Shown here in pieces: positions 1,206 through 40,244 of a stretch of DNA of 64,000 nt. The stretch covers positions 2,432,001 to 2,496,000 of the forward strand of contig OZ244561.1 of the NCBI GenBank assembly GCA_965217585.1, in the 5' to 3' direction. The DNA comes from Candidatus Latescibacterota bacterium (GTDB taxonomy: Bacteria; Latescibacterota; UBA2968; UBA8231). The notes under the pieces are model-generated. The model was not told the DNA's origin. It searched no databases and saw only the letters and a program-made list of their open reading frames with translations. The number at the start of each line of letters is the position of its first letter. Within the stretch, counting starts at the first letter, position 1. Both the position numbers and the translations under genes were made by a program.

Positions 1206-1254
1206 CCGACGATAAGTGCAGTGCCAGAATGAAAAAATCAGGTGGAAAAGATAC

Positions 1255-2214: not shown

Positions 2215-2343
2215 GCTTGATCTCCTCTCCTAATGGATGGTCTCCCAGTCTGCACATATGCGCCGACATGGGCTTGGGCCGGATCGCCCAAGGTAGGTTA
2301 CTAGAAGTTATCTCATAAACTCTGAATACGTCATCAGATGGTC

Positions 2344-4829: not shown

Positions 4830-4833
4830 AGTT

Positions 4834-5622: not shown

Positions 5623-5702
5623 TAACTTGTGCTTTGAATAGGCCAGATGCACCTCGAATCCTAGAAGATGGGACGCGAGGTGCATCTGGCGGCGGGCTTC
5701 CA

Positions 5703-7070
5703 CTATGGCTGGTTGCCCATAATGGTAATCTCGCCCCCAAAGCCACCGGCAATTATCCTAGCGGCGAATGCCTGGACCAGACCGCTCGGCAGGTTGGGGT
5801 TGTCCTCAATCCACAGGTACTCCCCGACGCTTTGCACGTTGTCCAAGGCTTTGAGGCTGGCCAGAGACATATTGCCATCTATCTGCAGGACGTTTCCGAC
5901 GCTTTGCAGATTGTCGAGGCCCTCGAGAGAGACCAGGGATGCATTTCGGTGGATCATCAGGCGACTCTCGATCCGAGTGAGCTTGTCCAGGCCCTTAAGG
6001 TCGGTCAGGGCATCGCTGCCCCAGATCGTCAGGCCCCCCCCGACGCTATGGAGGCTGCGCAGCCCCTCCAGGCTGGTCAGCAGTCTATTGTCGCGAATTA
6101 TCAATTCATCTCCGACGCTTTGCAGGTTGTGCAGACCTTCCAAGCTGGTCAGAGAGACATTGCGGTAGAGACTCAGGTTGCCCCCGATGCTTCGCAGGTT
6201 GTCCAAACCTTCCAGATTGGTCAGAAGGTCGTTGTGCAGGATATGCAGTTCGCCGCCGACGCTTTGCACGTTGTGCAGACCTTCCAGGCTGGTCAGAGCA
6301 AAATTGTGCTGGATGTGCAGATCGCCCGCGATGCTTTGCAGGCTGCGCAGCCCCTCCAGAGTAATTAGACCAAAGTTGTAGCCGATAATAGGGAGGCCGA
6401 GCTTCAGCGATCCCCCGATACTTTGCAGGTTGCGCAGCCCCTCCAGGTTGGACAGGGCCTCACCGTCGCTGAAGATACTTCCCTCGGACTCGCGCGCTGC
6501 TTGCTCATCGCCCTGGCTGCGAGTATGTCTTCGTTTTCTTTCGTCATAGTCCAGAGGTTCATTGCCGAAGATCCCCAAGTCTCCATCGATGCGGGTGACG
6601 TTGCGCAGGCCCTCCAGACTGGTCAGGGACGCATTGTCTCTGATTTCCAGCTTGCCTCCAATTCGGGCGAGCTTGTGCAAGCCATCCACATTGGTCAACG
6701 CTCGATTGTTGACAATTTCCAGGTCTCCATCGATGCGGGTGACGTTGCGAAAGCCGTCCAGACTGGTCAGGGCTGGATTGGCGCGCAGCCGCAAACCGCC
6801 GACACTATAAAGGTTGCCCAGGCCCTCCAGGCTGGTCAGGGTCGTTTCCTCAATGAACAGCTTGCCGCTGATACTGACGCAACTGCTGCCATCGCCTGCC
6901 AGAGCCTTTAGGTCCTCTAAGGTGCCGATCGAAAAGTCCCCTTCCCGGTTTATCCCTCCTTCAGAGCAGGCATTGCTCCCAATAGATGATGCCGGACCTG
7001 CGTCATCATCCCCGCAGCTGGCGAGCACGGCAGCGGCCATCGCAATCAACAGACCACAGACCATGCGCAT
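5703..7070 (-). CDS. Lipoprotein with Receptor-L-domain-type leucine-rich repeats
   Basis: Lipobox VLASC. About 13 repeats of ~25 aa with consensus LTSLEGLxNLxSIGGxLxIxxN; the matching 75-bp DNA periodicity is visible. Confidence 0.88.
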   Translation of the reverse strand: MRMVCGLLIAMAAAVLASCGDDDAGPASSIGSNACSEGGINREGDFSIGTLEDLKALAGDGSSCVSISGKLFIEETTLTSLEGLGNLYSVGGLRLRANPALTSLDGFRNVTRIDGDLEIVNNRALTNVDGLHKLARIGGKLEIRDNASLTSLEGLRNVTRIDGDLGIFGNEPLDYDERKRRHTRSQGDEQAARESEGSIFSDGEALSNLEGLRNLQSIGGSLKLGLPIIGYNFGLITLEGLRSLQSIAGDLHIQHNFALTSLEGLHNVQSVGGELHILHNDLLTNLEGLDNLRSIGGNLSLYRNVSLTSLEGLHNLQSVGDELIIRDNRLLTSLEGLRSLHSVGGGLTIWGSDALTDLKGLDKLTRIESRLMIHRNASLVSLEGLDNLQSVGNVLQIDGNMSLASLKALDNVQSVGEYLWIEDNPNLPSGLVQAFAARIIAGGFGGEITIMGNQP

Positions 7071-7082
7071 ATGCTCCTCTCT

Positions 7083-8771
7083 TTACTGCTTATATTCGGA
7101 TTCATCCGGTTCGTACAGGGTGAGTACCTGGTTCACCTCCATGCCCGTGAGCTGCTCGACGATGCCACTGGGCCAGCGGATCTCCACCAACTCGATTTTT
7201 TCCACCGCACCAAGCCCAAAATGAAGACGCAAATCATTCTGGGACAGAAAACTTGAACCACTCCTGACCTCGTCGATCTGCAAGCGGCCATCTGCCACGA
7301 CCTTGACCAAGGCTCCAATGCCGTCCCGATTGCTGGAGGGCCTCCGGGGTCGGCCCTGTGAGGCACCGGAGGAGGCGCGGGGGCCATTCCCGATCAGTTT
7401 GACGCCCAGCCAGCGATTCCGATTTCCACCGTCGTTGCGCAGGAGTGCGGCTGGCTGGTTGTTATTGGAGACCACCAGATCCAGATCCCCATCCTCATCG
7501 TAGTCTCCGACCGCCGCCCCGCGGCTCACCTGCACCAGCGCCAAGCCCGGTCCCGCCGAATTAGTCACATCGGCGAACCTGCCCTGACCGTCGTTTCTGA
7601 AAAGTTGGTTCTGCTGGGCATAGGCCACACTAGTGTCGAATAGCTCCACATTGTCATCCAAGTGGCCATTGGCCACGAAGAGGTCGCAGTCTCCGTCGTT
7701 GTCGTAGTCGAAGAAAACCGTCCCCCAGGCCAGAAATCTCAGGCTCGGTATGCCCAATCCCGACTCGAAGGTGGTATCGGCGAAAAACCCGTTGCCCAGG
7801 TTTCGGTAGAGATTGTTGGTCTCCCACTGGTAGTTGGTCACGAAAAAGTCGAAGAACCCATCGTGGTCGTAGTCTCCCGCAGCGACCCCCATCCCGGCCA
7901 AGGCCTCTCCGGCGTCGTCAAAAGCGACCCCGGCCAAGAAACCGACTTCGGTGAAGCGGCCCCCATCATTGCGGTAGAGCAGATTGGGCGTGCGATCCCC
8001 GGCCACGTAAAGATCCAAGTCGCCGTCCTGATCGTAGTCGCTGAAGAGGGCCCCCAGTTCCTTGGCCGCCCGGGGCCGCAAGCCGACTGTATCGCTAATG
8101 TCTACAAAGGTTCCGTCCCCCTCGTTTCGGAAGAAGACATCCGCCTGTGGATCGAAGGCCTCGGGTCCGCAGTAGACCTGTAGCCCTTTAGCTTGAATGC
8201 AGGGCGGGTTTACCTCCGGCGGGTACTCCACGTAATTGGCCACATAGAGGTCGGGATCGCCGTCCTGGTCGTAGTCTGCAAAAGCCGCTCCTGTGCTAAA
8301 ACCCGGATGGCCCACTCCCGAGCGGCTTGTCACATTGGTAAAGCTCCCATCGCCATTGTTGCGGTAGAGGATATTGGGCCCGTAGCAAGTGATGTAGAGG
8401 TCGAGATCGCCGTCCTGGTCGTAGTCTGCCGCGGCACAGCCCATCCCGTGGCCCGATTCGGCCACCCCGGCAGTGGCTGTGGTCTCCTCGAAGCGCCCGT
8501 CGCCCCGATTGCGGTAGAGGGCCCCCGACCCGGCGCTGTTGGCAAAGTATAGGTCGAGCCAGCCATCGGCGTCGTGATCAAAGAAAACCACCCCCGAACC
8601 CTGCGTCTCCGGGAAATGCTTTTCCCCTGTCGCCCCATTCTGGTGGCGAAAGGCAATCCCGGCCATAGCAGTGACATCGACGAACTGGACCTCGGCCTTT
8701 GCCGGCAGTTGAAGAAGAACCGCTGCTGCGAGGCAGCACCCGGACAAAGAAATATACCTTACCTTCGCCAA
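7083..8771 (-). CDS. CRTAC1-family protein (FG-GAP/VCBS beta-propeller plus ASPIC/UnbV domain)
   Basis: Signal peptide; repeated DYDxDGDxDLYV motifs; C-terminal NRDGIGALV..GSSFLSQNDLRLHFGLG..IRWPSG. Confidence 0.93.
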   Translation of the reverse strand: MAKVRYISLSGCCLAAAVLLQLPAKAEVQFVDVTAMAGIAFRHQNGATGEKHFPETQGSGVVFFDHDADGWLDLYFANSAGSGALYRNRGDGRFEETTATAGVAESGHGMGCAAADYDQDGDLDLYITCYGPNILYRNNGDGSFTNVTSRSGVGHPGFSTGAAFADYDQDGDPDLYVANYVEYPPEVNPPCIQAKGLQVYCGPEAFDPQADVFFRNEGDGTFVDISDTVGLRPRAAKELGALFSDYDQDGDLDLYVAGDRTPNLLYRNDGGRFTEVGFLAGVAFDDAGEALAGMGVAAGDYDHDGFFDFFVTNYQWETNNLYRNLGNGFFADTTFESGLGIPSLRFLAWGTVFFDYDNDGDCDLFVANGHLDDNVELFDTSVAYAQQNQLFRNDGQGRFADVTNSAGPGLALVQVSRGAAVGDYDEDGDLDLVVSNNNQPAALLRNDGGNRNRWLGVKLIGNGPRASSGASQGRPRRPSSNRDGIGALVKVVADGRLQIDEVRSGSSFLSQNDLRLHFGLGAVEKIELVEIRWPSGIVEQLTGMEVNQVLTLYEPDESEYKQ

Positions 8772-8808
8772 GAAGACCCCCGTGAGACTACTTCTAACCC
8801 CTCTGATT

Positions 8809-10167
8809 TCATTCTGTCAGACGTCGGTAGATCTCCAGTTCCGCCTCGCCCTCTGCCCGCCGGTCTTGCCCAAGGTAGATCATGCCCAAGCTGTAGTGCG
8901 CATCGCCGTGGTTGGGCTCTATCTTGATAACTTTCTGGAAAGCCCGGATCGCCCGCGGCGCATCGCCCATGGCCAAGTAGGCGGTCCCGAGGTTGTAGTA
9001 GGCCTGGACATAGCGGGAATTGAGCGCCAAGATCTTCTCGTATTGGCCGATCGCCGCGGCCATTTTCCCTTGCCGGAGGAAGATATTGGCCAAGTTGTTG
9101 CGGGCGCTCAGGTCGGTGGGATTGATGGCCAAAGCTTGTTGGTATTCGGCCGCCGCCGCCGGGAAATGGCCCAAGCCAGCGTAGAGCACCCCGAGATTGT
9201 AACGGGCATCTGCGTCCTCCGGGTAGAGCGTCAGGATATATCGGTAGCGCCTGATTTCATCGCTCGCTTTTCGCAGGCGCTGGAAAGCGGCCAGTAGCTT
9301 TTGGCCTTCCTCAGTCCTTGCCTGTCTGAGGTAGAGCTTTCCAAGCCGGTGATAGGCTTCTTTTTCAAAGGGGTCGGCGGCAAGAGCTTTCTGAAGAGCA
9401 GTCTCCGCTTCGGCGGTCCGCCCTTGCTGGAGAAGCACCTGTCCCAGCAAGGTATAAGCATTGGCGTATCCCGGATTGTGGCGGAGAACGGCTCTGGAGC
9501 TCGCCTCGGCCTCCTCAAGGCGCCCCAACTTGGTATAGATCTGTCCGAGATGATAGTACGCATCAGCGTAGGAGGAATCGAATGCTACTGTCTGCTCGTA
9601 CGCGGCAATGGCAGACTCGGAGCGGGCCTGTTGCTCGTAGACCACTCCCAGATTGTAGTGGATGGCGGCATTCTCCGGTTCGAGCCGAAGCGCCTTGGTC
9701 AAGGCTGCGGCCGCATCGTCATAGCGGCCCTGAGCGCTAAGGACTATGGCAAGCTTGCGATAGGGAGAAACGCGGTCGGGAGCCAGCAAGATCGCCTCTT
9801 CGTAAGCCACGGCGGCAGAGTGATTCCGGCGCTCCCGCATGTACAGATCGCCCAGCGCAATGCGGGCTTCGACATCGTCCGGATAGAGCTGCACGGCTTG
9901 GGCGATGTGTCGCGTAGCCAGCTCAAACTTGCCCTGCTTCTGAAGGATGGAACCGGCAAGCAGGAGGACCTCGAGATGGGTCGAATCCACTTCCAGGGCT
10001 TGCTGGCAAGCTGCGATAGCTTTGAGATAGCTGCCGGCCTCGGCCAGACGCTTGGCCTCGGCGTATGCCGCCTCGACCCGCTTCTGCGACCTCTGGTCGC
10101 CACAGCCGCTGGTGGCGAGGACAGTAAAAAGGGCGAAGCACCAAACTTTAAATACCGGCTTCTGCAT
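8809..10167 (-). CDS. Tetratricopeptide repeat lipoprotein
   Basis: Lipobox ATSGC; about 11 TPR units (A.YNLG..Y...G....A...Y..AL...P). Confidence 0.9.
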   Translation of the reverse strand: MQKPVFKVWCFALFTVLATSGCGDQRSQKRVEAAYAEAKRLAEAGSYLKAIAACQQALEVDSTHLEVLLLAGSILQKQGKFELATRHIAQAVQLYPDDVEARIALGDLYMRERRNHSAAVAYEEAILLAPDRVSPYRKLAIVLSAQGRYDDAAAALTKALRLEPENAAIHYNLGVVYEQQARSESAIAAYEQTVAFDSSYADAYYHLGQIYTKLGRLEEAEASSRAVLRHNPGYANAYTLLGQVLLQQGRTAEAETALQKALAADPFEKEAYHRLGKLYLRQARTEEGQKLLAAFQRLRKASDEIRRYRYILTLYPEDADARYNLGVLYAGLGHFPAAAAEYQQALAINPTDLSARNNLANIFLRQGKMAAAIGQYEKILALNSRYVQAYYNLGTAYLAMGDAPRAIRAFQKVIKIEPNHGDAHYSLGMIYLGQDRRAEGEAELEIYRRLTE

Positions 10168-11806
10168 CCATCTTCTTCAAGCGGTCCTCAAATAGGACGA
10201 TCTTAGAGGCGTACTTCTCCTTCAGGCTGAGAAGTAAGGTGCTGATTAGCTCCTCTTCCTTCTCCTTCCTCAGCCAGTATCGCGCCCTCGTCGACGCCTT
10301 CTCAAAGGGATCGGGCATCAAACCGCTCTTCTCCACCACCTTGAATACTGTATAGCCTTCCTCGAGCTGTAAGGGACCTTTCAGCTCTCCCACCTCTGCC
10401 TGCAAAGCCTCGTCGTAGAGGGGACCGTAATGCGCCTGTCCATAGGTGTGCATATTAATGAAGCCTTTGGTTTTCTCGGCCCCACTTCTGATACTATAGC
10501 GCTCGGCCAAACGCTCCATTTCCTCCCCGTTCAGAATCCGTTTCAAGACCTCCTCGGCCTCTTCCCGGGTTGTACACAGAATCTCCTGGACGGTGATCTG
10601 TTCGGGCTTTTTAAAAAGATGTAGATGGCTTTCGTAGTAGGAGCGCACCGCTTCGTCGCTCAGGTCGATCCGCCGATCCACCTCCCACTCTTTTAAAGTT
10701 TCGATCAGCATAGCCTTTTTCTTGGCCTCCAGCCAAGCGGCTACCGACGAGTCCTGATCAATTCCCTGCTTCAGAGCTGCTGCGGACAGGAGTGGGACCG
10801 GCAAGAGCTCCCGATAGATGAACTCGGCGATGCCGCTGCTGTCAAATCTGACCGATCGGAAGCGGCGGACTCTCTGGTAGGTGTCGGCGAAATCTTTCAA
10901 GGTCAACTGTCCGCCATCGAAACGGCACAGAACCACCTCCTGTTCCCGTTTTGCTATATCCAGAGTATCTGCGCCAGAGCTTGGAGCCCTTTCTAATAAG
11001 AATGAGATGCCTTCCTGGTCTAGCTGCACCTCGAATTGGGTGGCCAGCTCCTCTATCAGCTCTTTATGGCGGGCCCGGGAGGTTTCCGTAAGCTGGACCC
11101 GGGCATAAATAAAGGCGTAACTAGCGGGGGGAGGCCCCTCGGCCACGACATGGAAGATCTCGTACCTATCTCCTATCTCGAAAGGCTGGCTGATCTTCCC
11201 CACCTCTAGCGCGAAAACTTCCTCTGCCACCTCCACCGGCATCCCCTGCTCTTCCACGTTTCCACGCCCGTAGAGGGGACCGAGCAAGCCACCTTGGGAG
11301 GCGGTCTCTCGATCGGTAGAACGAAGTTTGGCCACTTCCCCGAACCCTTTTCCCTGCTCGAGCTCTTCCATTACCTCCCGGGCATCCTTCTCGGTCTCCA
11401 CCTGGATATGGGCCAGCTTCAGCATGCGGTTCCACTTGGACTGCTCGAAGCTACGTCGCAATTCGCCTGATGAAAGATTGATCTTTTCTTGGACTTCCCG
11501 GCGGAGAATCTCCCCGAGCAGTTTTTGCCGCCGCTCGTGCTCCCATTTACCCAGAAACTCCGAATCCTGGTCTATGCCCTGCTTCCGGGCCTCGAGTAAC
11601 ATCAGCTCCATATCGACCATGCTGTCGAGGTATTCGCGCCACACCTGAACGCCCTCCTCCTCAGAGCGGAGCAGAGCGGGCATATCCACATTGAACCGAA
11701 GCAGGTCTTCGACCGTAATCTCCACTGTATCGACCCGGGCTACCACATTGTCGTCCGCTGTGTCACCGCAGCCGGACAGCCACAAAAAAAACGCGACTAG
11801 CGCCAA
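10148..11806 (-). CDS. Parvulin-type peptidylprolyl isomerase/foldase lipoprotein (PrsA/SurA-like, two PpiC domains)
   Basis: TTG start with AGGAGG; lipobox LSGC; VVARVD..EITVEDL N-domain; LAHIQV..FGEVAK..S.D..GGLLG and a second VQEIL..LAERYS domain. Confidence 0.88.
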   Translation of the reverse strand: MALVAFFLWLSGCGDTADDNVVARVDTVEITVEDLLRFNVDMPALLRSEEEGVQVWREYLDSMVDMELMLLEARKQGIDQDSEFLGKWEHERRQKLLGEILRREVQEKINLSSGELRRSFEQSKWNRMLKLAHIQVETEKDAREVMEELEQGKGFGEVAKLRSTDRETASQGGLLGPLYGRGNVEEQGMPVEVAEEVFALEVGKISQPFEIGDRYEIFHVVAEGPPPASYAFIYARVQLTETSRARHKELIEELATQFEVQLDQEGISFLLERAPSSGADTLDIAKREQEVVLCRFDGGQLTLKDFADTYQRVRRFRSVRFDSSGIAEFIYRELLPVPLLSAAALKQGIDQDSSVAAWLEAKKKAMLIETLKEWEVDRRIDLSDEAVRSYYESHLHLFKKPEQITVQEILCTTREEAEEVLKRILNGEEMERLAERYSIRSGAEKTKGFINMHTYGQAHYGPLYDEALQAEVGELKGPLQLEEGYTVFKVVEKSGLMPDPFEKASTRARYWLRKEKEEELISTLLLSLKEKYASKIVLFEDRLKKMDAEAGI

Positions 11807-11818
11807 CGCTCTTCCCTC

Positions 11819-12586
11819 CTACTGCCCCGGGGCGGGCGGCTCGAGGGCATAGTTGACCTCCCGGGTGAACTGATAGGGAATATCGACTTTCTCCATTGGC
11901 TCGTCCCGGTAGTCGAAGCGCAAGGTCATTTTCTCGATCCGAACCTCGAACTCCTCGACATCGTCGTCCAGCGCAGGAAAAACGACAAACCCTCCCTTTT
12001 CCTGACCACTGAAGATCATATCATCGTTGAAGAGCGTCTTCCTCAGAATGCTCTCTCGCTCCTTGAATGGCTTGTAGGTATTGCCCGCGTAGGCGATTGC
12101 ATAGGGCCAGTAGTATTCGATCAGGGCAGTGAGGCTGAGCGACTGATAGCGCCGTCCGTTGGGGGCTGTGATCTCAATCAAGGCCGGATCCACGCGCACC
12201 TTTGGATAGGCGTAGTTCTTTATCTTTAGCAGAAAGACCGCAAAACGGGCCGGTGCCTGTTCCTCACCCGACGGCTTCCAGTCGCCGTAGGTATAAGGAT
12301 TGACTGGAGCTTGGTACGGATTATCCCGGTAAAAGCCCGCAGGAGAGGTCGAATGAACTTCAAACTGCCGGTTCAGCATTTCGGCAGTTATAGGTTGCAG
12401 GCTGACCTCCAAGCGGCCCTTGACAAAGGTGATGCTGCGGTCATCTCCAACGTTAAATTCCTCGGTCTGCTGGGTCTCGGCAATGGGCACTATGGGTCCG
12501 GGAAAGTGCCGATAGCCCAATTTATAGCCGCAACCACCCAACAGCAGGGCTACTGACGCGATTGTGCTGAGTACAAATATCCCCAT
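11819..12586 (-). CDS. Conserved hypothetical lipoprotein
   Basis: ATG 12586 after GAGGTG; lipobox LGGC. Beta-rich C-half (VFLLKIKN..GFVVFP) is compatible with an Ig-like/DUF4352-like fold (inference). Confidence 0.75.
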   Translation of the reverse strand: MGIFVLSTIASVALLLGGCGYKLGYRHFPGPIVPIAETQQTEEFNVGDDRSITFVKGRLEVSLQPITAEMLNRQFEVHSTSPAGFYRDNPYQAPVNPYTYGDWKPSGEEQAPARFAVFLLKIKNYAYPKVRVDPALIEITAPNGRRYQSLSLTALIEYYWPYAIAYAGNTYKPFKERESILRKTLFNDDMIFSGQEKGGFVVFPALDDDVEEFEVRIEKMTLRFDYRDEPMEKVDIPYQFTREVNYALEPPAPGQ

Positions 12587-12626
12587 CCTAATCACCTCTT
12601 GGCGAGATCTTGCGACGCTTCTAAGT

Positions 12627-14702
12627 TCAATAAGCCACACCTACTACCTGCAATTGATCGAAATCCCCTTGGTCCGCCCCCACCCGTACCCGCGCCACAT
12701 ACACCCCTGGCGGCACCAATGCGCCGGCGGCGTCCCGGCCATCCCATTCCACCACCTCCTGCGGACCGACTCTCTGTACCTCCAGCACCTGCTGCCATAC
12801 CCGCTGTCCCTCTAAGCTGTACATGCCCACCTCCACCTCTGTCCCCCCCAGCACCTGGAACAAAGTGAAGCGGATCGACACTACATCATTAATGCCATCC
12901 CCCTGAGGTGTAAACACCGACGGCTGCACCTCTAACTGGCGCAGAACAGATCCCAGCGACGATTCGACCGCGACCATGCGCAACTGGTTAGTGCCCATCT
13001 CGTCACTGACATCTCCGCTCTCCACTTCCTGCGGCAACCCGGCTTGTTCACGGCGAAATACCTCGGCTCGCAGTGCGCCCGAGGCGCTGTACAATGTTGT
13101 CTCCAGCCGCAGCCGCAACCGCTGGTCGCCGTCTGGACTGAGCGGACGTGGCAAGTACACGGTGAACCCCTGCTCATCAGGCACCACATCGGCTGGATCC
13201 ACAGGCACCGGCTGCAGCGGGTCACCCATCTCCAGACTCAAAAACTCGGCGGCCGAGGGCGCCAATACCCGCACCCCATCAAAACCGGCCTGACCGGCGA
13301 CGAACTCGGCGCCTATTTCGTAGACCAACTCGGTCAGCTCGCCGACGGGCAGCAGGGCCACTCTGCCTTCGGGCTGCAAATCGTCCACCACAGCCACCTC
13401 GCCCAGTATCCGCTCGGCCAACAGCGACGAGGTCTCCACCACCAGCGAGTCGATGCGGGCAAACGATTCTAGGCTCTCACTGTCCATTTCCACCCGCAGC
13501 ATGATAAAGCGGCCGCGCGGCACCCGGGGCTTTTCGCCGGACTGCTCGAGCGGGGGCGACCAGAAGCTCCAGTTGTCCCGGTCTTCAGTGATCGGTCCGG
13601 CCCAGCCGGCCGCCAGCGGGTCAAAGGGCCAGCGCCGCGGTTTGAGGCGAGCGTAATCGGTGGCGCTCACCTCGGTAGGCTGGCGCAAGTCGTTGTAGGT
13701 GTGGTAGGCCACCGGTTCGTCGTCCAGGCCGGTGCGCACGGACACCCTGACCTGAGTGGGCGCTTCGGGATCGGGTTGGGGCTCGGACGCGACCGCGTCC
13801 TTGCGCCAAGTGCTGACACCGAAGTGGATCTGGCCGATGTTGACGATCTGTCCCAGGTCTATGACCTTGGACTCCCAGCGGACCTCGGGCACGACGCCGC
13901 GACCGTACACCTCCAACTCGGACACCGCATACCGCGCGAACGCGGTATTTTGACCTTCTCTACAACATTGCGAGTCCGGAATAAAGCGCAGGCGAAAGAA
14001 GCGCATGTACTGGCGCGGAAAGATAACCTCGATCGTGGATTCGAGATTGCCTTCCACCGAGGCCAGCACAATGTCCAACGGAATGTAGAAACCGTTGCAC
14101 CAAAAGTGATTGGTACACCAAGTGCCGTCTTGCAGCTTTATCACCACCTCATCGTTGCTAGCGGTCAATTCGTAGCGGGGGAAGAAGTAGTTGGGGTCGT
14201 AGGGTTCTTGGGTGATCGGCTCGGTGCCTTCCGGTGGAAGCATTACAAAGCGCTCGGCGGGAATTCGCGTACCTAGATCGATGGAATAAAACTCGCCCTC
14301 CACCCCCCCTTGACCACCGGCTGCGGTAAAGCCTGAGGAGGCATAATAGGTGTCGCGGTCCCCATCTACGAATATCAGCGCATCGGCAACTCGGCCGACC
14401 TCGCGGATGGAGCCAACAGCCCGCCAGACATGAGGCATGCCGGGACGAAAGTCGAACTCGACCGGCTCGCGGAAGCGGAACCAAGGGCCGATCTGGGTGA
14501 CCACGTTCACGTTGGGATCGAGGAAAAGGGGCTGGATCGCTCCTAAGCTAGAGGTCAAATCTACCATCACGTTCAAGGCGGTCTGGTCGGCCCAGGACTG
14601 GCCGTTCTCACCGCCAAGACGCAGCTCAATTAGCTGGGTGGCCGACTCGCGGGGGCTAACTAGCAGCCCTAGGGCAACCAGCGCAAAAAAAGCTCCTCTC
14701 AT
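12627..14702 (-). CDS. Secreted protein with discoidin-like region and C-terminal FlgD-Ig/CHU_C-like domain (paralog 3)
   Basis: Signal peptide; FVDGDRDT, IDLG, SELEVYG; C-terminus FTPQGDGIND..WDGRD..G.LVPPGVY..VGVAY. Confidence 0.82.
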   Translation of the reverse strand: MRGAFFALVALGLLVSPRESATQLIELRLGGENGQSWADQTALNVMVDLTSSLGAIQPLFLDPNVNVVTQIGPWFRFREPVEFDFRPGMPHVWRAVGSIREVGRVADALIFVDGDRDTYYASSGFTAAGGQGGVEGEFYSIDLGTRIPAERFVMLPPEGTEPITQEPYDPNYFFPRYELTASNDEVVIKLQDGTWCTNHFWCNGFYIPLDIVLASVEGNLESTIEVIFPRQYMRFFRLRFIPDSQCCREGQNTAFARYAVSELEVYGRGVVPEVRWESKVIDLGQIVNIGQIHFGVSTWRKDAVASEPQPDPEAPTQVRVSVRTGLDDEPVAYHTYNDLRQPTEVSATDYARLKPRRWPFDPLAAGWAGPITEDRDNWSFWSPPLEQSGEKPRVPRGRFIMLRVEMDSESLESFARIDSLVVETSSLLAERILGEVAVVDDLQPEGRVALLPVGELTELVYEIGAEFVAGQAGFDGVRVLAPSAAEFLSLEMGDPLQPVPVDPADVVPDEQGFTVYLPRPLSPDGDQRLRLRLETTLYSASGALRAEVFRREQAGLPQEVESGDVSDEMGTNQLRMVAVESSLGSVLRQLEVQPSVFTPQGDGINDVVSIRFTLFQVLGGTEVEVGMYSLEGQRVWQQVLEVQRVGPQEVVEWDGRDAAGALVPPGVYVARVRVGADQGDFDQLQVVGVAY

Positions 14703-14755
14703 AACACATCTTCCTTAAAAGATTGCGCTCAATCCATCCTCATAATGTGTATATA

Positions 14756-17401
14756 TCAATCTGTACCTGTACTGGCAAATATGCGCACGAAACCGATGGA
14801 TTCATCTCTGGCATCCTCTTCTTTGAACTTGGTACGCCGCAGTTGCAGACCTGTATTCGCGGTTATCTGGTAGCCCAAGTAGGCAGAAGTGTTGGAAATG
14901 AGGATCGAATAAACCTGGCTGCGGAAGTCGTCGACAAAGCCCGGGGGCGGCTCTTCCGGTCGCTCCTCCAAGTTTTCAAACCAGCTAAATTCGACCCCGC
15001 CTTCCAGCCATGTTCCCGGAAGCAGCGAGTAGCGGGTAATCAGAAATAGGGTTTCCTCAAGGTCGCGGGATTTCAGGCTCGATTTTGTCGAAGGGGTCTC
15101 GCGCCGAAATGTGCTCTTCCACCTAGGCCAGAGTATCAGGTCTTCCCCCACTTGAAGAGTGTACCCCGCCTTGTTGATCAAGCCGAAAAACGAGCGATTG
15201 CGCAGCTCGTCGGCCTGTTCTCCCCGCTGGTTGAAGATTTCGTACTTGATCTTGCCCTGAATATCCAGATCGCGAATCCGGTTGTACCTGGCCTGGAGGT
15301 ACAAGGTGTTGACAAAGGTGTCCTGATTCTCCAGGGGATCGCTGAAGTTCTCCGATCCCGTGGGATCTTTCCAGACCAGCCGGTCGTCCTTGATATTATC
15401 CTTTACCAGCTTGGCATGTTCGACCAGACCGATGTTCCACCCGGGCATATTCACCTCTGCCGTAAACAGTCCGTAGGTAGCGCGACTCTTCCTAGCGCTG
15501 CTAGGCATTCGTTCCTTCAGCCGGCCGATGGTAATTTGCGCTCTCTTAGCGAGCATCAGCCCTCCGTAGATATTGTATCCCCGGCGGTCCCGTTCGTAGG
15601 GAAAGTCCGGCTGCCGATCGTCCTCGAAGCGGTCGATGAGTGTGTTGTTGTTCAGGTCCATTCCGAAGAGGAACTCTGGAGGATCCACTGCGTAGCGCAG
15701 GAAGGGCTCGGCATAGTCGGGTCTAGAGTTGGCATTCTGGTTGAAATCGGAGACAAAGTCGTTGTTCTCGTCGAGTCCGGGGAAGACGTTGTTGTCGGCT
15801 CCCGCCCCTCCCACATCCCCGACCAGTCCGATCTGATTGATGCGTTGCCAGTCCGGAAAGCGGTCCTGGTCGTCGTTGTCGTCGACGAACTCAAACAGGT
15901 GCCTCTGCTCGTCGCTGTAGTCGATGCCCCCCAGTGAATTGGAGATGAAGGCCGTGGTGCTGTAGTCGGGAGCCATGTCAAAGGCCTCTGTGTAGACGAA
16001 CCAGGGATAGTTATTGTAGGAGGCCGTAACATAGGCCGCTTCGGCCTGGTCTTTTTCTGGATCGAGGTCGTTGACCCCAAAGTTCTGGTTGGGGAAGCGC
16101 CGGAAACGTCGGTTTACTGCGTACTCGGCGCGCAGGTCTAGGCCTCCTAAGTTGTTTATCTCCAAATCCAGACCAATTACCTCGTGGGCTGTGGGCAGGC
16201 CGTACTCAAACCTAATGAAGCGCTGATTGGACCCATCGATGACCTCCTTCTCAGCTTGGGCAACTGGCAAAAAAACTTGGCCTCCCAAGCGATCTGTTTG
16301 TTTGTTGGATGAAACCTCCACCCGGTAGTCGTTGGCTATGATCAGCTCGAACTCCAGCTTGGAAATATCCCCCAAGGTCGGCACCTCTTCCGTCGGTCTG
16401 AAGTCGTTCCTGACATCGTAGATCAGCTCAATCACATCTGTGCCGCGCGCCTCGAGGTTGCCCTCACTGCGAATCCCGCCTCGTATCAAGGGGGTGATCT
16501 CCGGATGTGGCTTCCCGTTGATCACCACTTGGTCGAAGAAGAGGAGTGCCCCCGATTGCGGGGTTTCCGGAGAATCGTCCGAGATCCGGACGACCACGGT
16601 TTCCACGCTGCCCTGGTTCTGGGGCTCGGTCAGCACGCCTTTTAAGGAGTTGTCTCCCAGAGTCAGGGTACTGGTGGTGTTGGCGACGTTGACCCAGGTC
16701 AGCCCGATTTGCGCGAAGTCTCCTAACTGTCCAACCCCTCTGCCTGCCAAAAGCCTCGAGGTGTTCTCGGATCGGTTAGCTCCGGATGTCTGCGTGAGGG
16801 CCGAAAAGCCGGGCGCACTGAGTCGAGACGCCAAGATGGTCATAGCGTACTTGTCGGTGAGGAAGTCCCACTGGATACCATTAAAGGTCGGCTTGGAAAA
16901 GGTGAGGGGTGTCAAGGTCGTGCGGAGCGCATCGCCGATGGTCAGGGAAGTGTGGAACTGGCCTTTCTGGGCAGACGACACGATGACATTGTTGAACCAA
17001 CTCTGGTAAAACGCGTTCTTGAATATCTCGCTTCCGAGCCGCTCCGGACTGTTCTCGGTCCAGTCGTAGATCTTCCATCCCCGGGCGATATAATTACCAA
17101 AGAGGTCGTATTGCCGGGTTCCTTCGAGCAGAATGTTCACGTAGCGCTGATAGTTTTGCCGGGCATAGTTACTGTACTCCCACCCCCGCCAGCTATATTC
17201 ATAGTACAGATTCTGGGGAAGATACCACTTCCGGCGGTTGGGAGCCAAGGCACCAGGGCGGACCCGTGCTCCGTAGATTCCCGGCTCTTCGACAGGGCGG
17301 TACCCGGTGAATAACTGAGCGTTTGCTGGGATTTCTCCCAATATGATACTGCTCAAGAAAAGCAACATTACCGGTCTTAAATGGCCTATTGCCTGCGACA
17401 T
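14756..17401 (-). CDS. Large exported protein, predicted outer-membrane beta-barrel with Asp/Asn-rich Ca-binding-like loops
   Basis: 881 aa, signal peptide (ANA/Q). Many alternating amphipathic strands (LYLQARY, KIKYEIF, LINKAGY, LFLITRY, GVEFSWF, GFVRIFA). Loops DDNDDQDRFPD, DENNDFVSD, NQNANSRPD, DLNNNTLID. The fold is inferred. Confidence 0.65.
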   Translation of the reverse strand: MSQAIGHLRPVMLLFLSSIILGEIPANAQLFTGYRPVEEPGIYGARVRPGALAPNRRKWYLPQNLYYEYSWRGWEYSNYARQNYQRYVNILLEGTRQYDLFGNYIARGWKIYDWTENSPERLGSEIFKNAFYQSWFNNVIVSSAQKGQFHTSLTIGDALRTTLTPLTFSKPTFNGIQWDFLTDKYAMTILASRLSAPGFSALTQTSGANRSENTSRLLAGRGVGQLGDFAQIGLTWVNVANTTSTLTLGDNSLKGVLTEPQNQGSVETVVVRISDDSPETPQSGALLFFDQVVINGKPHPEITPLIRGGIRSEGNLEARGTDVIELIYDVRNDFRPTEEVPTLGDISKLEFELIIANDYRVEVSSNKQTDRLGGQVFLPVAQAEKEVIDGSNQRFIRFEYGLPTAHEVIGLDLEINNLGGLDLRAEYAVNRRFRRFPNQNFGVNDLDPEKDQAEAAYVTASYNNYPWFVYTEAFDMAPDYSTTAFISNSLGGIDYSDEQRHLFEFVDDNDDQDRFPDWQRINQIGLVGDVGGAGADNNVFPGLDENNDFVSDFNQNANSRPDYAEPFLRYAVDPPEFLFGMDLNNNTLIDRFEDDRQPDFPYERDRRGYNIYGGLMLAKRAQITIGRLKERMPSSARKSRATYGLFTAEVNMPGWNIGLVEHAKLVKDNIKDDRLVWKDPTGSENFSDPLENQDTFVNTLYLQARYNRIRDLDIQGKIKYEIFNQRGEQADELRNRSFFGLINKAGYTLQVGEDLILWPRWKSTFRRETPSTKSSLKSRDLEETLFLITRYSLLPGTWLEGGVEFSWFENLEERPEEPPPGFVDDFRSQVYSILISNTSAYLGYQITANTGLQLRRTKFKEEDARDESIGFVRIFASTGTD

Positions 17402-17455
17402 ACATCACCTCCCATTATCCTTCTGAGAACTGCTCGCCCGAAATAGCCAAACCCA

Positions 17456-19765
17456 CTAATAGACCACGCTGATTGTCTGGGCCAAGGCCTCATCACTGGT
17501 CTGCGCCTCTATATCGATCCGGCATAGATAGATCCCGGGAGGCACCAGAGTCTGGCTATGGTCCTGACCGGACCAAGTAAAGAGCCATAACCCGTCCGTC
17601 TGACGCTGTCCCTCCAGTTGCCGCACCAAGCTACCGTCCAAGGTGTAGATCTGAACCTGGGCCGGCATGTCCACTTTCAAAATATTAAAGCGGATCTCTG
17701 CCTCGTCCCCTACGCCATCGCCGTTGGGAGTAAAGACAGGCTGGACCGAAAGATTGGCAATAAGCCGGTCACTCGAAACGACGTCGGGCAAGAAGACCGT
17801 GGTCGAGAAGCGCACATCGGCATCGGGATCAACTGGTTGCCAGAGTTCGGGGTTTTGAGTGTTACCGACAAAGGCCTTAAAATGATACGGGCTCTGCACT
17901 ACATTGACATACATCTCAATGTCTACTGGCTGCTGCTCCACTAGCTGGGGAAGCTCCACTATGAGAGAATCCGGGAAAAACTGCACGGCCTCGGTCGCCA
18001 GCACCACTGGGCTGCCATCTATCTGGACCGAGAAGCTGTCGGCATCCGCCTGGGAGGGGGTTTCCACCCGGATGCGGTCAAAGCCGGAATCTCCCGGACC
18101 GAACTGGGGCCGAAGGTGATATACAAATTTCTGGGCAACGCCCGGCCGGGCCTCTTTGGGCTCAATCTCGCCCACCGCCCCGATCAGAAAAGCATCGTCG
18201 AAATCGAGAGAAAGCGAACGCAAGGTCGCCGCTGTGTCCGGTCGGTCCGAAATCAGGGAGACCGCAAACTGCACGTACCGACGCGGACTTGGAGAAAGAA
18301 ACTCCTGCCCGGAAAATCGATAGGGATTGCTCCAGCCGCTCCAGTCTGCTCCTTCCACTAGGACTGCCTCTTTTTTGCCTCTCCGGGGTTTGGGCAATTT
18401 GTTGTAGAGTTCCTCGGTAACCTCGTTGCCATTTTTATCGTAGTAAATGGTCTGCTCTTCAAAGGTATTGCCCGAGCGGGTCTGGGCTTGCACCTTGGTA
18501 CCTGCGGGCAAGTCCGCATCCCAGCTGAGCGAGCGAAGCACCTTGGGCCGATCTCCCAAATCCTCAAAGCCCGAGGTCATCTCTACTTTGGCTATGTATC
18601 CGACCGGGAAGACGGCGATATCGTTGAGAATACTGCTCCTGTTGCCGACGTAAATATGCAGCATGTGGCGGATAGACTTAGGAGGGAACATGAGATAGTT
18701 CAGCCACTGGGGTGTGTTCCAGCCAATCGCATCGGGAAAATCGAAGAGCAGATCGAATTCTATCTCTCCGGCCAGAGTGCGTCTGGACCCGTCCGAGACA
18801 AATAACTGGACTCTCTGGTGGCCCGAGGTGGCGGCGTATGCCCCTTGCCCCTGACCCGCGTCCAGCGGCGCTAGTTCGAGAATCCGGTTTACCCAGAAAT
18901 GGGCCCCCAGATCCCAACTCCAGCTGAACTTGGCAGTCGGGTCCGTACTACTCACCTGCCAAGTGGTGCTGAGGTCCCCATCGACCAAGGCACTGGCGCG
19001 ACCAGTCGGCTCGGTTATAGTGCCGCCTCGATCAAAGATGCTAAGGGCAATATTCTGTCCAAAGGTGAAGACTTCCACTTCGGCAAGGGCCGCATCCGCA
19101 GTTTGGGCATCTACGACAATGCGCACGAACTGGATTGGTCCGTAGGTGGTCGAGGTATCTGTACCCGCCAGGGCTGCAGGACCAAATAGGCGGTTATTAG
19201 ACACCCTGCCGAAGGCCTGAACCGGGTATTCGATCAGAGTCTGTTCGTTCAGCCTGCTGGTGCCGCCAATTAAGTCGAAAAAAAAGAAATCCTGGCCTTG
19301 CGCTTGTCTAACGCCATTCGAGCCGAGGACTCGGAACACCCCTAGGGGCTTTGCCCCTTCTTGGTCGGGAAAGTGCAGGCGGATCTTGCTGGTCGGGACC
19401 GCCCGTCCCAAGTTGATCTCGATCCACCAATTCTCCACAGGGTCATTCGGATCGGGCTTCCAGAAGGTCTCGAGATCGCCATCAATGATATTGGCGGCAG
19501 CGTTCGGGTTTGATCCGACTTTCCACACTCCTCCTTGCACTTCTCCCTGCTCTTTTGTCTCATGGGTAAATTGATCCGCGTCGAGCGCGGCGTTGATGGA
19601 CGACTCGAACTTTATCGGGGTGATGGAGCCATCTGCCCCAAACTCGAGGGTTCCGGCAGGAAAATTCCACTCCTGGTCCACCTGGAACACCTGCCCTCTG
19701 GCCCCTTCTTCTATCAACGGGACTAGCAGGAAAGAAAAAGCGCAGAACTTGACCAGATTCTTCAT
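17456..19765 (-). CDS. Secreted protein with F5/8 (discoidin)-like domains and C-terminal FlgD-Ig/CHU_C-like domain (paralog 2)
   Basis: Signal peptide; NIIDGDLETFW..WIEINLG and LVDGDLSTTW..WDLG; C-terminus FTPNGDGVGD..WSGQD..LVPPGIY..ISVVY. Confidence 0.82.
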   Translation of the reverse strand: MKNLVKFCAFSFLLVPLIEEGARGQVFQVDQEWNFPAGTLEFGADGSITPIKFESSINAALDADQFTHETKEQGEVQGGVWKVGSNPNAAANIIDGDLETFWKPDPNDPVENWWIEINLGRAVPTSKIRLHFPDQEGAKPLGVFRVLGSNGVRQAQGQDFFFFDLIGGTSRLNEQTLIEYPVQAFGRVSNNRLFGPAALAGTDTSTTYGPIQFVRIVVDAQTADAALAEVEVFTFGQNIALSIFDRGGTITEPTGRASALVDGDLSTTWQVSSTDPTAKFSWSWDLGAHFWVNRILELAPLDAGQGQGAYAATSGHQRVQLFVSDGSRRTLAGEIEFDLLFDFPDAIGWNTPQWLNYLMFPPKSIRHMLHIYVGNRSSILNDIAVFPVGYIAKVEMTSGFEDLGDRPKVLRSLSWDADLPAGTKVQAQTRSGNTFEEQTIYYDKNGNEVTEELYNKLPKPRRGKKEAVLVEGADWSGWSNPYRFSGQEFLSPSPRRYVQFAVSLISDRPDTAATLRSLSLDFDDAFLIGAVGEIEPKEARPGVAQKFVYHLRPQFGPGDSGFDRIRVETPSQADADSFSVQIDGSPVVLATEAVQFFPDSLIVELPQLVEQQPVDIEMYVNVVQSPYHFKAFVGNTQNPELWQPVDPDADVRFSTTVFLPDVVSSDRLIANLSVQPVFTPNGDGVGDEAEIRFNILKVDMPAQVQIYTLDGSLVRQLEGQRQTDGLWLFTWSGQDHSQTLVPPGIYLCRIDIEAQTSDEALAQTISVVY

Positions 19766-19781
19766 CGGAACAATCCTTTCC

Positions 19782-21728
19782 TCAGTACACTATTCCCACA
19801 GTCTCCGCCCGCACAAAGCTTTCCTGGTCGGCGTTAACCGAAACCTTGACCAGATAAATGCCCACTGGAAGCAGTTCCTCGCTGTCGTCCCGTCCATCCC
19901 ATGGCCTTATATGATTTCCGCTCCGCTCCTCCCCGGCCAGGGTCCGCACTCTCCGACCCGCCAGATCGAAGATTTCCACCTCCACCTCCACAGGCTCTAC
20001 CAGCTGTGAAAGGGTGAGCGCGATCAAAGCCTTTTCGTTGATCGCATCCCCATTGGGCGAGAACACCCTCGGAGTGACCTCGAAAGAGGACAGGATCTCC
20101 CTAGCGGACTCGGCTGCAGTCAGCACCCGCAGCGTATTGGTCGTTACCTCGGGGTTGGCATCGCCCGACAAAACCCTCTGAGGCACCTCTTCGCTTTGGG
20201 TATCGAAGACCTCGGCGTTCAAGAAGCTCCCTTGGACAAACACCTGAGCCTCGAAAATAATCTGCAGGACGTCTCGGCCAACTATCCGATGGGAAGAGGG
20301 GAAGAGTAAGGTCAGGCTGCCGAGTTCCTCTATAATCTCGGTGGGTTCTACCTTTTCAGGAGGATCTCCTATGAAGAGTTCCCCGAATTTTGGCTGCGAC
20401 GAGGGGGTGAATATCCGGATGCCATCAAAGCCGATGTCCGTTCCCGCAACATCGGCGATGAGATCGTAGACAAAGGTGACGAACTGGCCGACCGGCACGA
20501 CGGCCACACTGCGCGGAGGACGGGGCTCGTCCAGCACAGAGACCTCTCCGATTAATTGCTGGGCCAGCGGCGGAATAGAGTGCTCCACACTCAGAGAAGT
20601 GACCTGCATGCCGTCTAAAATGGACTGGCTCCTCATGGCGATCTCGAACTGAAAGTAGCGGCGCGGACTGGGCAGGGTGATTCTCTGCCCGGAGGCGGTA
20701 AAGGGCGATGACCAAAGACTCCAATTGATCTGGTCGTCTTGAATCCCGCCCTGTTCGTTTTGACCTAACTTGTTGTATTCGTCCTCTGTCACTACCTCTC
20801 GCTCCCGGGTAAACCGATCTACCAGCCGAAAAAAAACCCGGGGATTGTCGTCCGTCCCCGTGCGCATCCGGACGGAGATCTCTGTGTCGGCGTCTTCCAC
20901 TACGACCGGACTGTCGCCTTCCTGGCGCAGTCCCTCGACCGCCCATTCAAGCCGGCTGAAATTGGCCACCTCCCCTAAGTCAATGATCTTGGAGGTATAA
21001 CTGGCTTGGGGAGCGAAGCCTTTGCCGAAAAGCTGAAATTCGGCGATTTCGAATGGATTCGGAGAATTTACATGCAGGCGGATAAAGCGAATAAACTGCA
21101 GCGGAAACAAGACCTCCGCCGTGTCCTCACGGGTGAATTCCACCTGCCGGAGGAGGCTGTAATCCGGCCTATTGTCTTGGGTAAAGCTCAGCCCGTCGCT
21201 GGAGAAGAGACTGTAGCTCCGGATAAAATCCTCACTATAAGGTCGTCCTTGATCATCTACGCCAAACGGACGTGGAAAAAAGAGAATTCTATTCATCGGG
21301 ATCCGGGTCCCCAAGTCGAATTCAAATCTTCTCCCATTCTGTTGGACCCCGAATACCTTGAACTGATCCCCGGTGGAGGTAGTATCTTGCCCATCTACGA
21401 TCACCAGTTGCGACTCTCTCAAGGTGGTATTGTCCCAGATATGGGCCTGGGCACGCTCTTCAAGAAACCCTATCGGGCGGGCGCTGACCCAGCTCAACTG
21501 CTGGGTGATATTGTTCTGGGGATCGAATCCCAAACTCTTGATAGTTCCCGCCTGGGAAAAATCGAGAGCCGTCGAAGCCAGCTCCTGCGAAGCCCAAGAT
21601 TCGCCGCCTTCTCCCACCTTCCACTCCCTCACCTCTCCCCAGCTAATCCCCGACATGGCCGCAATCCAGATCGCCGTGATCGCCACCACAGCCGGCCTTT
21701 TCGATTGGGGCTTCATTGTTTTCCGCAT
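19782..21728 (-). CDS. Secreted protein with discoidin-like region and C-terminal FlgD-Ig/CHU_C-like domain (paralog 1)
   Basis: Signal peptide; IVDGQDTT, FDLG, EIAEFQLFG, PSPRRYFQ; C-terminus FSPNGDAINE..WDGRD..LLPVGIY..VGIVY. Confidence 0.82.
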   Translation of the reverse strand: MRKTMKPQSKRPAVVAITAIWIAAMSGISWGEVREWKVGEGGESWASQELASTALDFSQAGTIKSLGFDPQNNITQQLSWVSARPIGFLEERAQAHIWDNTTLRESQLVIVDGQDTTSTGDQFKVFGVQQNGRRFEFDLGTRIPMNRILFFPRPFGVDDQGRPYSEDFIRSYSLFSSDGLSFTQDNRPDYSLLRQVEFTREDTAEVLFPLQFIRFIRLHVNSPNPFEIAEFQLFGKGFAPQASYTSKIIDLGEVANFSRLEWAVEGLRQEGDSPVVVEDADTEISVRMRTGTDDNPRVFFRLVDRFTREREVVTEDEYNKLGQNEQGGIQDDQINWSLWSSPFTASGQRITLPSPRRYFQFEIAMRSQSILDGMQVTSLSVEHSIPPLAQQLIGEVSVLDEPRPPRSVAVVPVGQFVTFVYDLIADVAGTDIGFDGIRIFTPSSQPKFGELFIGDPPEKVEPTEIIEELGSLTLLFPSSHRIVGRDVLQIIFEAQVFVQGSFLNAEVFDTQSEEVPQRVLSGDANPEVTTNTLRVLTAAESAREILSSFEVTPRVFSPNGDAINEKALIALTLSQLVEPVEVEVEIFDLAGRRVRTLAGEERSGNHIRPWDGRDDSEELLPVGIYLVKVSVNADQESFVRAETVGIVY

Positions 21729-40193: not shown

Positions 40194-40244
40194 AGGAACC
40201 CTCCCAGTGACGGAATTACCGATCCTCCCCTTCACAGACCATTT

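Follow-up and report, generated by a model that had tools for sequence, protein, structure and literature searches.

A conserved, multicopy gene cassette around a predicted outer-membrane beta-barrel in Latescibacterota, possibly a station for glycan capture and uptake

The 64,000-nucleotide stretch of a Candidatus Latescibacterota bacterium genome analyzed here (contig OZ244561.1, positions 2,432,001 to 2,496,000; hereafter the window) carries a row of minus-strand genes at 5703-21728 that includes an 881-amino-acid (aa) predicted outer-membrane (OM) beta-barrel, a 255-aa lipoprotein, three paralogous secreted proteins sharing a type of C-terminal tail (C1, C2 and C4), a peptidyl-prolyl isomerase (PPIase) lipoprotein, a tetratricopeptide-repeat (TPR) lipoprotein and a propeller of the UnbV_ASPIC type. 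We find that chance does not account for this neighborhood, that the cluster is conserved as a functional unit, and that the conserved set reaches beyond this span, to two copies of a secreted protein that we call x309 and to a divergent gene for a DUF6785/DUF6784 membrane protein. The reading we favor, with a probability of slightly under one half (about 0.48), is that the cassette is an OM capture and uptake station whose substrate is most likely a glycan, a counterpart of polysaccharide utilization loci (PULs) with unrelated parts. What recommends uptake is that the machine and its apparent "cargo" have been duplicated together and co-diverge, that this "cargo" is lectin-like, and that importers and catabolic genes are linked to the cassettes.

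A scan for the barrel in one genome per species returned 395 confirmed loci, the best 80 of which were analyzed, all of them from metagenome-assembled genomes (MAGs) labelled Latescibacterota, Handelsmanbacteria, Gemmatimonadota or unclassified. One 2.3-kb locus (L012) gave no barrel call among its open reading frames (ORFs) and was dropped, and 48 loci had flanks of 8 kb or more to either side of the barrel; neighbor counts for these 48 are lower bounds, drawn from BLAST best hits at a coverage of at least 0.5 with a greedy choice of ORFs. C1/C4-type paralogs stand beside the barrel at 46 of the 48 loci, the 255-aa lipoprotein at 41, x309 at 38, and C2, whose gene nearly always immediately precedes that of the barrel, at 35. 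Two or three tailed paralogs are present at 42 loci, one at five and none at one. The PPIase gene was found at 35 loci, the TPR gene, usually paired with the ASPIC gene, at 32, and the ASPIC gene itself at 25. The usual order is x309, lipoprotein, C1, C1/C4, C2, barrel, and the PPIase, TPR and ASPIC genes are placed before, after or convergent to this row. Conserved co-occurrence in other genomes, by which the original prediction of an operon-encoded envelope system proposed to be judged, is thus found across the 48 full-flank loci.

The cassettes are also multicopy. Single genomes supply three to five loci among the best 80 of 395, with five of the 80 (L001, L005, L018, L027 and L035) held by OZ247580.1, and in a quick maximum-likelihood tree of the 48 barrels, which resolves about eight deep clades with short tips and contains some joins flagged as long-branch, copies from one genome fall in different deep clades. 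Distances among barrels closely track those among their partners (Mantel r = 0.967 for the lipoprotein, 0.985 for C2 and 0.963 for the PPIase, with 0 of 999 permutations as high). Together, the multicopy state and this co-divergence indicate that whole cassettes were duplicated long ago and have diverged as units, and joint duplication and co-divergence of barrel and "cargo" is the behavior of subunits of one complex. Barrels of the same family also occur as "orphans" without a cassette at four loci (L042, L045, L048 and L056), where they adjoin, in fixed order, MR_MLE, BNR, APH-like kinase, phosphomannose isomerase, NTP_transferase and aminotransferase genes.

The barrel gene itself (14756-17401, minus strand) encodes a protein that matches neither Pfam nor NCBIfam families at E<=0.01. 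Its homologs in the database number 671, at 47-97% identity and nearly all 870-890 aa long, the few named ones being annotated "hypothetical protein" in Latescibacteria or Handelsmanbacteria MAGs; a profile search of 1.84 billion representatives returned 948 clusters (50% identity) at E<=1e-3, with 299 at E<=1e-30. An AlphaFold2 (AF2) model built from 135 sequences, distant representatives included, is confident (predicted local distance difference test score, pLDDT, 88.7; predicted template modeling score, pTM, 0.85) and supersedes a poor first model from 20 sequences (pLDDT 52.4). After a signal peptide comes a highly conserved, small-stranded N-terminal part at about residues 31-148, and the DSSP string of the model places long antiparallel strands at 149-243, 402-476 and 606-877, from which we infer a barrel of about 22-24 strands. 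The model also shows a beta-sandwich insert at about residues 268-382 which, judging from loop lengths, would sit in an extracellular loop and not form a periplasmic plug. A further region at about residues 505-605 is Asp/Asn-rich, irregular and nearly invariant, and both the DSSP string and the alignments suggest that three D-x-[DN]-x-[DN] loops within it resemble EF-hand calcium sites.

Foldseek comparison of this model with the PDB matched OM barrels only, at template modeling (TM) scores no higher than 0.31: MtrB ranked first (E 2.4e-9) and LptD ninth, with TM values of 0.21-0.31 across the MtrB and LptD comparisons, porins were also listed, and TonB-dependent transporters stood low in the list (E 5e-4 to 1e-3, TM 0.14-0.26). 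A beta-barrel had been predicted for this protein beforehand, with a non-barrel fold set as the outcome that would tell against the proposal; no such fold was found, and with a confident model whose neighbors are all OM barrels we regard the 881-aa protein, on structural modeling, as a large OM beta-barrel of a new family. Sequence-profile searches of the PDB with the barrel gave nothing credible, the sole match, to a 44-residue stretch of a restriction-enzyme subunit (E 0.026), being one that we attribute to chance. Its ESM Atlas neighbors are unnamed clusters except for the nearest named one, DUF6029, whose value of 0.89 lies under the reliability line and which was dropped as a relative. 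Complex prediction for the barrel (residues 92-881) with the lipoprotein (residues 46-255) scored 0.00 vs a mark of 0.32, a result that counts neither way.

The three tailed proteins, C1 (648 aa; 19782-21728), C2 (769 aa; 17456-19765) and C4 (691 aa; 12627-14702), all minus-strand, had been described as FlgD/CHU_C-tailed paralogs, and comparisons among them confirm the paralogy: C4 and its sister C1 are 32% identical over 666 columns (E 1e-92), and a second comparison gives 28% identity over 530 columns (E 6e-37). Pfam scores for the tails are 33.1, 26.5 and 20.8 bits for FlgD_ig in the three proteins, and for CHU_C 29.5 bits in C2 and 25.8 (C1) and 24.1 bits in the other two. The cutoff of 27 bits is reached by two of these six matches, FlgD_ig in C1 and CHU_C in C2, and both matches of the C4 tail fall under it; likewise, the NCBIfam sorting-domain models TIGR04183 and TIGR04131 score 21.2 bits vs a cutoff of 23 and 18.3 vs 35. 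Across 22 relatives, at E up to 0.01, FlgD_ig is matched in all 22 and CHU_C in 19, and the alignments show that the tails end in an invariant terminal Tyr. Read by eye, the tailed paralogs have plain signal peptides and lack a lipobox.

Ahead of the tail, these proteins look lectin-like. Besides the FlgD Ig domain (E 9.4e-8) and the PorU C-terminus (E 0.022), the C1 profile matches in the PDB the galactose oxidase N-terminal domain and CBM32 modules (E 7e-4 to 1e-3), and the C2 profile matches FlgD (E 1.2e-6), the F-type lectin FBP32 (E 2.6e-5) and the CBM32 of an alpha-N-acetylglucosaminidase (E 4e-3); C2 also contains a Pfam F5_F8_type_C match of 35.5 bits. From these profiles C1 appears to consist of a galactose-binding-like (discoidin/CBM32-like) N-terminal region, conserved middle domains and an FlgD-Ig/CHU_C-like C-terminal domain, and C2 of two discoidin/F-lectin-like domains with the same C-terminal domain. 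A 708-aa FG-GAP protein in another locus (L075:20042-22165, minus strand) likewise ends in FlgD_ig (46.3 bits), which shows that further secreted proteins in these organisms bear this tail.

Two further members of the cassette are entirely unannotated families. The 255-aa lipoprotein (counted from its ATG; 11819-12586, minus strand) carries the lipobox LLGGC, is conserved about as strongly as the barrel and has no Pfam or NCBIfam family match, and a PDB profile search with it was empty; its 353 homologs are all unnamed or "hypothetical", and invariant NPYT/NY.YPK motifs stand out in their alignment. x309, about 300 aa long, was found as the commonest unannotated ORF beside the barrel, and tblastn (about 42% identity, E 1e-75) locates two tandem minus-strand copies in the window, at 1255-2214 and 2344-3435, which are 89% identical to each other and lie two metabolic genes away from the operon. 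Weak matches to CBM9_1 (E 0.0064) and to the xylanase 7nwn (E 0.19) make a CBM9-like fold possible. Its conserved C-terminal motif, TAVE..SWGRIK, was considered as a general sorting signal and rejected, since it is confined to the x309 family: 32 of 37 motif-bearing ORFs lie in the x309 cluster and the other five look like further members.

Transport genes accompany the cassette in most loci. In the window, the plus-strand gene at 22054-24027, divergent from the operon, encodes a 657-aa polytopic membrane protein with about 13-15 hydrophobic segments and strong Pfam matches to DUF6785 and DUF6784 (392.9 and 97.7 bits), which we regard as the candidate inner-membrane transporter of the system. 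DUF6785 recurs at 19 of 48 loci, inside the cassette or at its edge and in five different arrangements. Where it is absent, ATP-binding cassette (ABC) importer genes are found: SBP_bac_1 with two BPD_transp_1 genes at nine loci, and Peripla_BP_1 with ABC_tran and BPD_transp_2 at five, often contiguous and co-oriented with the cassette. Binding-protein-dependent ABC systems are importers. Sugar-catabolic genes are often close by, and alongside the transporter-bearing cassettes lie genes of the DHDPS family and GFO/IDH/MocA, xylose-isomerase-like, MR_MLE and BNR genes. The type of transporter follows the barrel clades, with 8 changes on the tree vs 24.2 in shuffles (a contrast inflated by near-copies), and every type has either been acquired repeatedly or varies in its placement. 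Membership of DUF6785 in the OPT family was also considered: one Atlas neighbor cluster is 11% OPT, and Pfam gave no OPT match at E up to 10 in six of six members.

Some loci have other company. At one locus that has no transporter (L069:15928-21151), a MotA/ExbB-family gene comes after the cassette, the only hint of a TonB-type energizer beside a cassette, and beyond it lie DUF4159, a GH130 mannooligosaccharide phosphorylase-type gene and an FGGY sugar kinase. At three others (L061, L062 and L066), genes for DUF4956, a phytase-like/SdiA-regulated beta-propeller and a calcineurin-like phosphoesterase lie downstream of the barrel, with an Omp85-family gene nearby in L061 and L062. A PhyH gene precedes DUF6785 in L003-L011.

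Put together as an uptake station, the barrel and the 255-aa lipoprotein would share the outer membrane. At the cell surface, substrate would be bound by the CBM9-like x309 and by two or three lectin-domain paralogs, whose C-terminal FlgD-Ig/CHU_C-like domain would fasten them to the cell; the bound substrate, whole or in pieces, would pass the barrel and then cross the inner membrane by the adjacent transporter, the DUF6785 protein in the window or the binding-protein-dependent ABC importers in other cassettes, after which the neighboring sugar-acid and sugar enzymes would degrade it. The two-parvulin and TPR lipoproteins would act as cassette-specific assembly helpers, and the several diverged cassettes of a genome would presumably serve one substrate class each.

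In its working, as far as gene content can tell, the cassette resembles a SusC/SusD PUL more than any other known system, yet it is not a member of that class. Like SusC/SusD PULs (including the RagAB-type peptide importers), it occurs in many diverged copies per genome; its genes specify an OM barrel, a lipoprotein conserved along with it and additional binding proteins whose domains are of the carbohydrate-binding type; and it is linked to inner-membrane importers and catabolic enzymes, a linkage which for the cassettes consists of raw counts with no background rate. Unlike SusC, the cassette barrel bears no Plug or TonB_dep_Rec signature, and unlike SusD, the 255-aa lipoprotein has no family or PDB profile match and is not SusD-like. 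The binding proteins differ from those of PULs in having a tail like the C-terminal domain (CTD) of type IX secretion system (T9SS) cargo in place of a lipoprotein anchor, and the cassettes add a private PPIase, a TPR lipoprotein and an ASPIC propeller, whereas glycoside hydrolases are not regular members. ASPIC/UnbV genes may often lie beside SusC/D pairs in Bacteroidota, an association for which we found no backing paper and which we do not use as evidence. The original prediction had offered a SusC/D-like import complex as its alternative to a barrel that exports or anchors the three paralogs with dedicated chaperones. Its conserved unit stands, the exporter is disfavored by the co-divergence, the lectin domains and the transporter linkage, and the import alternative is favored by the pattern of the data but not by homology to SusC or SusD.

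Several observations weigh against uptake. Pfam and NCBIfam find no Plug or TonB-dependent-receptor signature in the barrel, and no obvious TonB box was seen by eye, which leaves energy coupling unexplained. The private SurA/PrsA-like foldase and TPR lipoprotein present in most cassettes have the flavor of export or assembly, and the C-terminal domains resemble T9SS sorting domains, which are commoner in export systems. A transporter, whether DUF6785 or ABC, is present at 33 of 48 loci, a raw count with no background rate set beside it, and 15 loci have none within 10 kb; the direction in which DUF6785 proteins transport is not settled by family evidence, the OPT link being an Atlas lead that Pfam failed to confirm. 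Glycoside hydrolases, lyases and peptidases, finally, are not regular cassette members, with the single GH130 at L069 and BNR genes near some loci.

A bolder form of the uptake reading, which we hold more tentatively, is that the cassettes represent an undescribed class of OM nutrient-uptake machine, independent of SusC/D, with a calcium-binding barrel of roughly 22-24 strands, lectins attached by their tails, a private foldase and TPR protein, a DUF6785 or ABC importer, and one cassette per substrate. Its range would take in Latescibacterota together with MAGs labelled Gemmatimonadota and Handelsmanbacteria, and in a distant branch of the family it would run to a dozen or more cassettes per genome. 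Among the barrels of that branch (about 980 aa; P0419-P0508), a single 5.87-Mb contig encodes at least 13 distinct ones, and two other contigs encode several.

The export or anchoring machine is the rival that survives best, although we consider it unlikely. Here the barrel and lipoprotein would form a private translocon or anchor for the tailed paralogs, comparable to PorP/SprF-type partners or to an usher, with the foldase and TPR protein chaperoning the paralogs through the periplasm, and the product would be a displayed array of adhesins or lectins with no transport through the barrel. The family-wide FlgD_ig and CHU_C matches of the tails, with a local match to the PorU C-terminus and an invariant terminal Tyr, speak for it, as do the missing lipobox, given which the paralogs need another route to the surface, the position of C2 almost always directly upstream of the barrel, and the PPIase and TPR genes that travel with the barrel at 35 and 32 loci. 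Type-B (CHU_C) T9SS cargo depends on PorP/SprF partners, and the tailed paralogs resemble such cargo in having a C-terminal Ig-like domain similar to the sorting or anchoring type and a gene position next to an OM barrel. However, the cassette barrel, at 881 aa, matched no PorP/SprF, PorV or SprA model in Pfam or NCBIfam, and the tail scores hover around or below the family cutoffs. FimD/PapC ushers appear among the Foldseek matches, FimD with E values down to 4.7e-7, but at TM scores of 0.17-0.24 and root-mean-square deviations above 30 Å, and no usher (PF00577) or PapD-like chaperone was matched by Pfam. Secretion systems as a rule consist of one machine that serves many cargoes, whereas here machine and "cargo" are duplicated jointly and co-diverge, and the recurrent linkage to DUF6785 or ABC importers and to catabolic genes would be left unexplained.

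That the core genes of T9SS, chaperone-usher and curli/Fap systems are unrecognizable here, as first claimed, holds for the whole window under Pfam and NCBIfam: its 49 ORFs include no SprA, PorV, PorU, PorK/L/M/N or GldK-N, and no CsgG, FapF-type channel or amyloid subunit family. The export and uptake readings also overlap, as the barrel may both hold lectin subunits by their tails and conduct substrate.

Considerably less probable is a structural module, in which the barrel would be a distant relative of the abundant SlpA/OmpM-type OM proteins of Deinococcus-Thermus and diderm Firmicutes and the cassette would build, in place of a transport device, an envelope scaffold or an S-layer-like coat of Ig- and lectin-domain proteins attached to the barrel. 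SlpA structures occupy Foldseek ranks 2-4 (E about 3e-7) with a TM score of 0.28 relative to the query, the best of all matches on that scale. Among distant barrel representatives, 10 of 50 in one set and 4 of 14 in another give SlpA_C (PF21620) matches of 16-30 bits, which fall short of the cutoff of 35 and involve one and the same profile segment in every case. Many members of the distant branch bear a precomputed PF21620 label. Both proteins are very large single-chain OM barrels, and a remote kinship with the SlpA barrel is possible. Nevertheless, the window barrel and all nine close representatives searched have no SlpA_C match, and a TM score of only 0.28 separates the two folds. The structural account of SlpA in PMC9388160 describes a 30-strand OM barrel that organizes the Deinococcus envelope, with SLH and coiled-coil parts making it a connector; the cassette barrel, with its roughly 22-24 strands, has neither an SLH match nor a long helix or coiled coil in its model. 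It is also multicopy with partner genes, and several diverged copies with their own partners and differing transporters are unexpected for a single coat.

Large barrels encoded with an obligatory lipoprotein partner are also known from LptD/LptE and MtrB/MtrC. The cassette barrel, however, matches no LptD/OstA or MtrB/PioB family, its TM score to LptD is 0.21-0.23, and cytochromes and lipopolysaccharide-transport genes are absent from the cassette. Ushers, LptD, MtrB and SlpA are structural neighbors only in the sense of "large OM barrel". Least probable of all, and by our estimate very improbable, is trans-envelope export of a polymer, with DUF6785 acting at the inner membrane as exporter or as partner of a synthase, and with an outer-membrane exit made of barrel and TPR lipoprotein, as in PgaA, BcsC or AlgK/AlgE: a TPR lipoprotein and a barrel are indeed co-encoded, the TPR protein and PPIase give sub-threshold NCBIfam matches to PrsT, BcsC and PgaA and to the EpsD type, respectively, and a TMEM260-like GT-C glycosyltransferase gene follows DUF6785 in the window, but the TPR matches are generic and all far below cutoffs, the glycosyltransferase is linked at only 2 of 48 loci, the cassettes contain no polymer synthase, polymerase or flippase families, and in other clades binding-protein-dependent ABC systems replace DUF6785.

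Latescibacterota occur widely in sediments, soils and sponges, where they presumably live on complex polymers, and to our knowledge the lineage has no cultured member. Full-text searches, covering the main texts of articles outside subscription journals, turned up no account of this cassette or of DUF6785, and none of a T9SS or a PUL-like system in Latescibacterota; PMC11495043 holds no statement on T9SS. On OM passage, the 2015 Latescibacteria genome analysis (PMC4454575) assumes, where it treats the subject, non-specific porins, a gap that a dedicated uptake gate would fill. If the uptake reading is true, the cassette would be the first concrete candidate for how substrates pass the Latescibacterota outer membrane, and it would solve by a second, independent route the problem that Bacteroidota meet with SusC/D. 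It would be a nutrient-uptake locus built from unrelated, unannotated parts, since the core barrel, lipoprotein and x309 families have no annotation at all, and a new class of OM machine should the mechanism be confirmed. It would also provide the first functional context for DUF6785/DUF6784 and possibly for bacterial CRTAC1/ASPIC propellers. The cassette would be of practical use as a genomic marker as well: the number and kinds of cassettes in an uncultured lineage would predict its range of substrates, much as PUL counts do for Bacteroidota.

The remaining operon genes, all on the minus strand, encode presumed helpers and less regular members. The 552-aa PPIase lipoprotein (10148-11806) has two parvulin stretches (Pfam Rotamase, 80.6 bits), with SurA_N_3 and NCBIfam PrsA/EpsD-type matches below their cutoffs, and is presumably a SurA/PrsA-like periplasmic folding helper. 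The 452-aa lipoprotein (8809-10167) matches many TPR families in Pfam and NCBIfam; it is reasonable to see these two as dedicated assembly helpers, a role that fits uptake and export alike. The CRTAC1-like propeller (562 aa; 7083-8771) scores 174.6 bits for FG-GAP_3 and 77.1 bits for UnbV_ASPIC, and the last gene (455 aa; 5703-7070) encodes a Receptor-L/leucine-rich-repeat lipoprotein (Recep_L_domain, 73.8 bits).

With regard to layout, the nine ORFs are consecutive, and the gaps between them in 5' to 3' gene order are 16, 54, 53, 40, 12, -20, 37 and 12 nt, the gap of 40 nt before the 255-aa gene becoming -14 if the longest ORF (start 12640) is used. The original prediction of nine co-oriented genes with gaps of -20 to 54 nt agrees exactly with these coordinates; its domain list was reproduced by our Pfam and NCBIfam scans, and the Sec or lipoprotein signals it reported are visible in the translations, where we read signal peptides and lipoboxes (LLGGC, LSGC, TSGC and LASC) by eye. 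Its gene set needs correction at the edges: the core members hold, the two x309 copies, which it had missed, and the DUF6785 protein lie outside its coordinates, and the Receptor-L lipoprotein, which occurs at only 2 of 48 loci, the near-identical L001 and L002, should be dropped from the system. Gene spacing suggests that the nine genes form a single transcript. A promoter and terminator scan of positions 1-19999 found nothing above chance, with 7 promoter-like sites vs 8.8 expected and 16 terminator-like sites vs 18.3 expected; the strongest terminator-like hairpin of these 20 kb, with a 16-bp stem, lies at 1206-1172 on the minus strand, immediately past the downstream copy of x309. Neither Rfam families nor tRNAs were found in the window.

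Beyond the DUF6785 gene, the plus strand encodes the 855-aa TMEM260-like GT-C glycosyltransferase (24047-26614) and a second FG-GAP/UnbV_ASPIC protein (26738-28732); this trio is common only to L001 and L002 and is probably a local addition. Six PhyH-family dioxygenase paralogs are spread over the 64 kb (4834-5622, 34150-34944, 41455-42897, 42931-43899, 49782-51146 and 57129-57950), the third and fifth of them fused to HEAT repeats, and they sit among genes for 2-hydroxyacid dehydrogenases, enolase-superfamily dehydratases, aldo-keto reductases, an ILVD/EDD dehydratase, a BNR protein and an SSF symporter. Several ORFs (670, 294, 144 and 118 aa; coordinates include 32136-34148, 46813-47697 and 53986-54795, all minus strand) have no Pfam or NCBIfam match. 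GC content falls to 0.50 at 60001-62000, around a plus-strand Fic-domain gene (60445-61638), and this region, together with the gene for a PcfJ-like protein (51275-52801, plus strand), may be mobile or foreign DNA. Finally, the minus-strand gene at 37935-40235 encodes a 766-aa protein that combines a TPR region with a C-terminal AhpC/TSA-thioredoxin-like domain of the ResA/TlpA-like kind.

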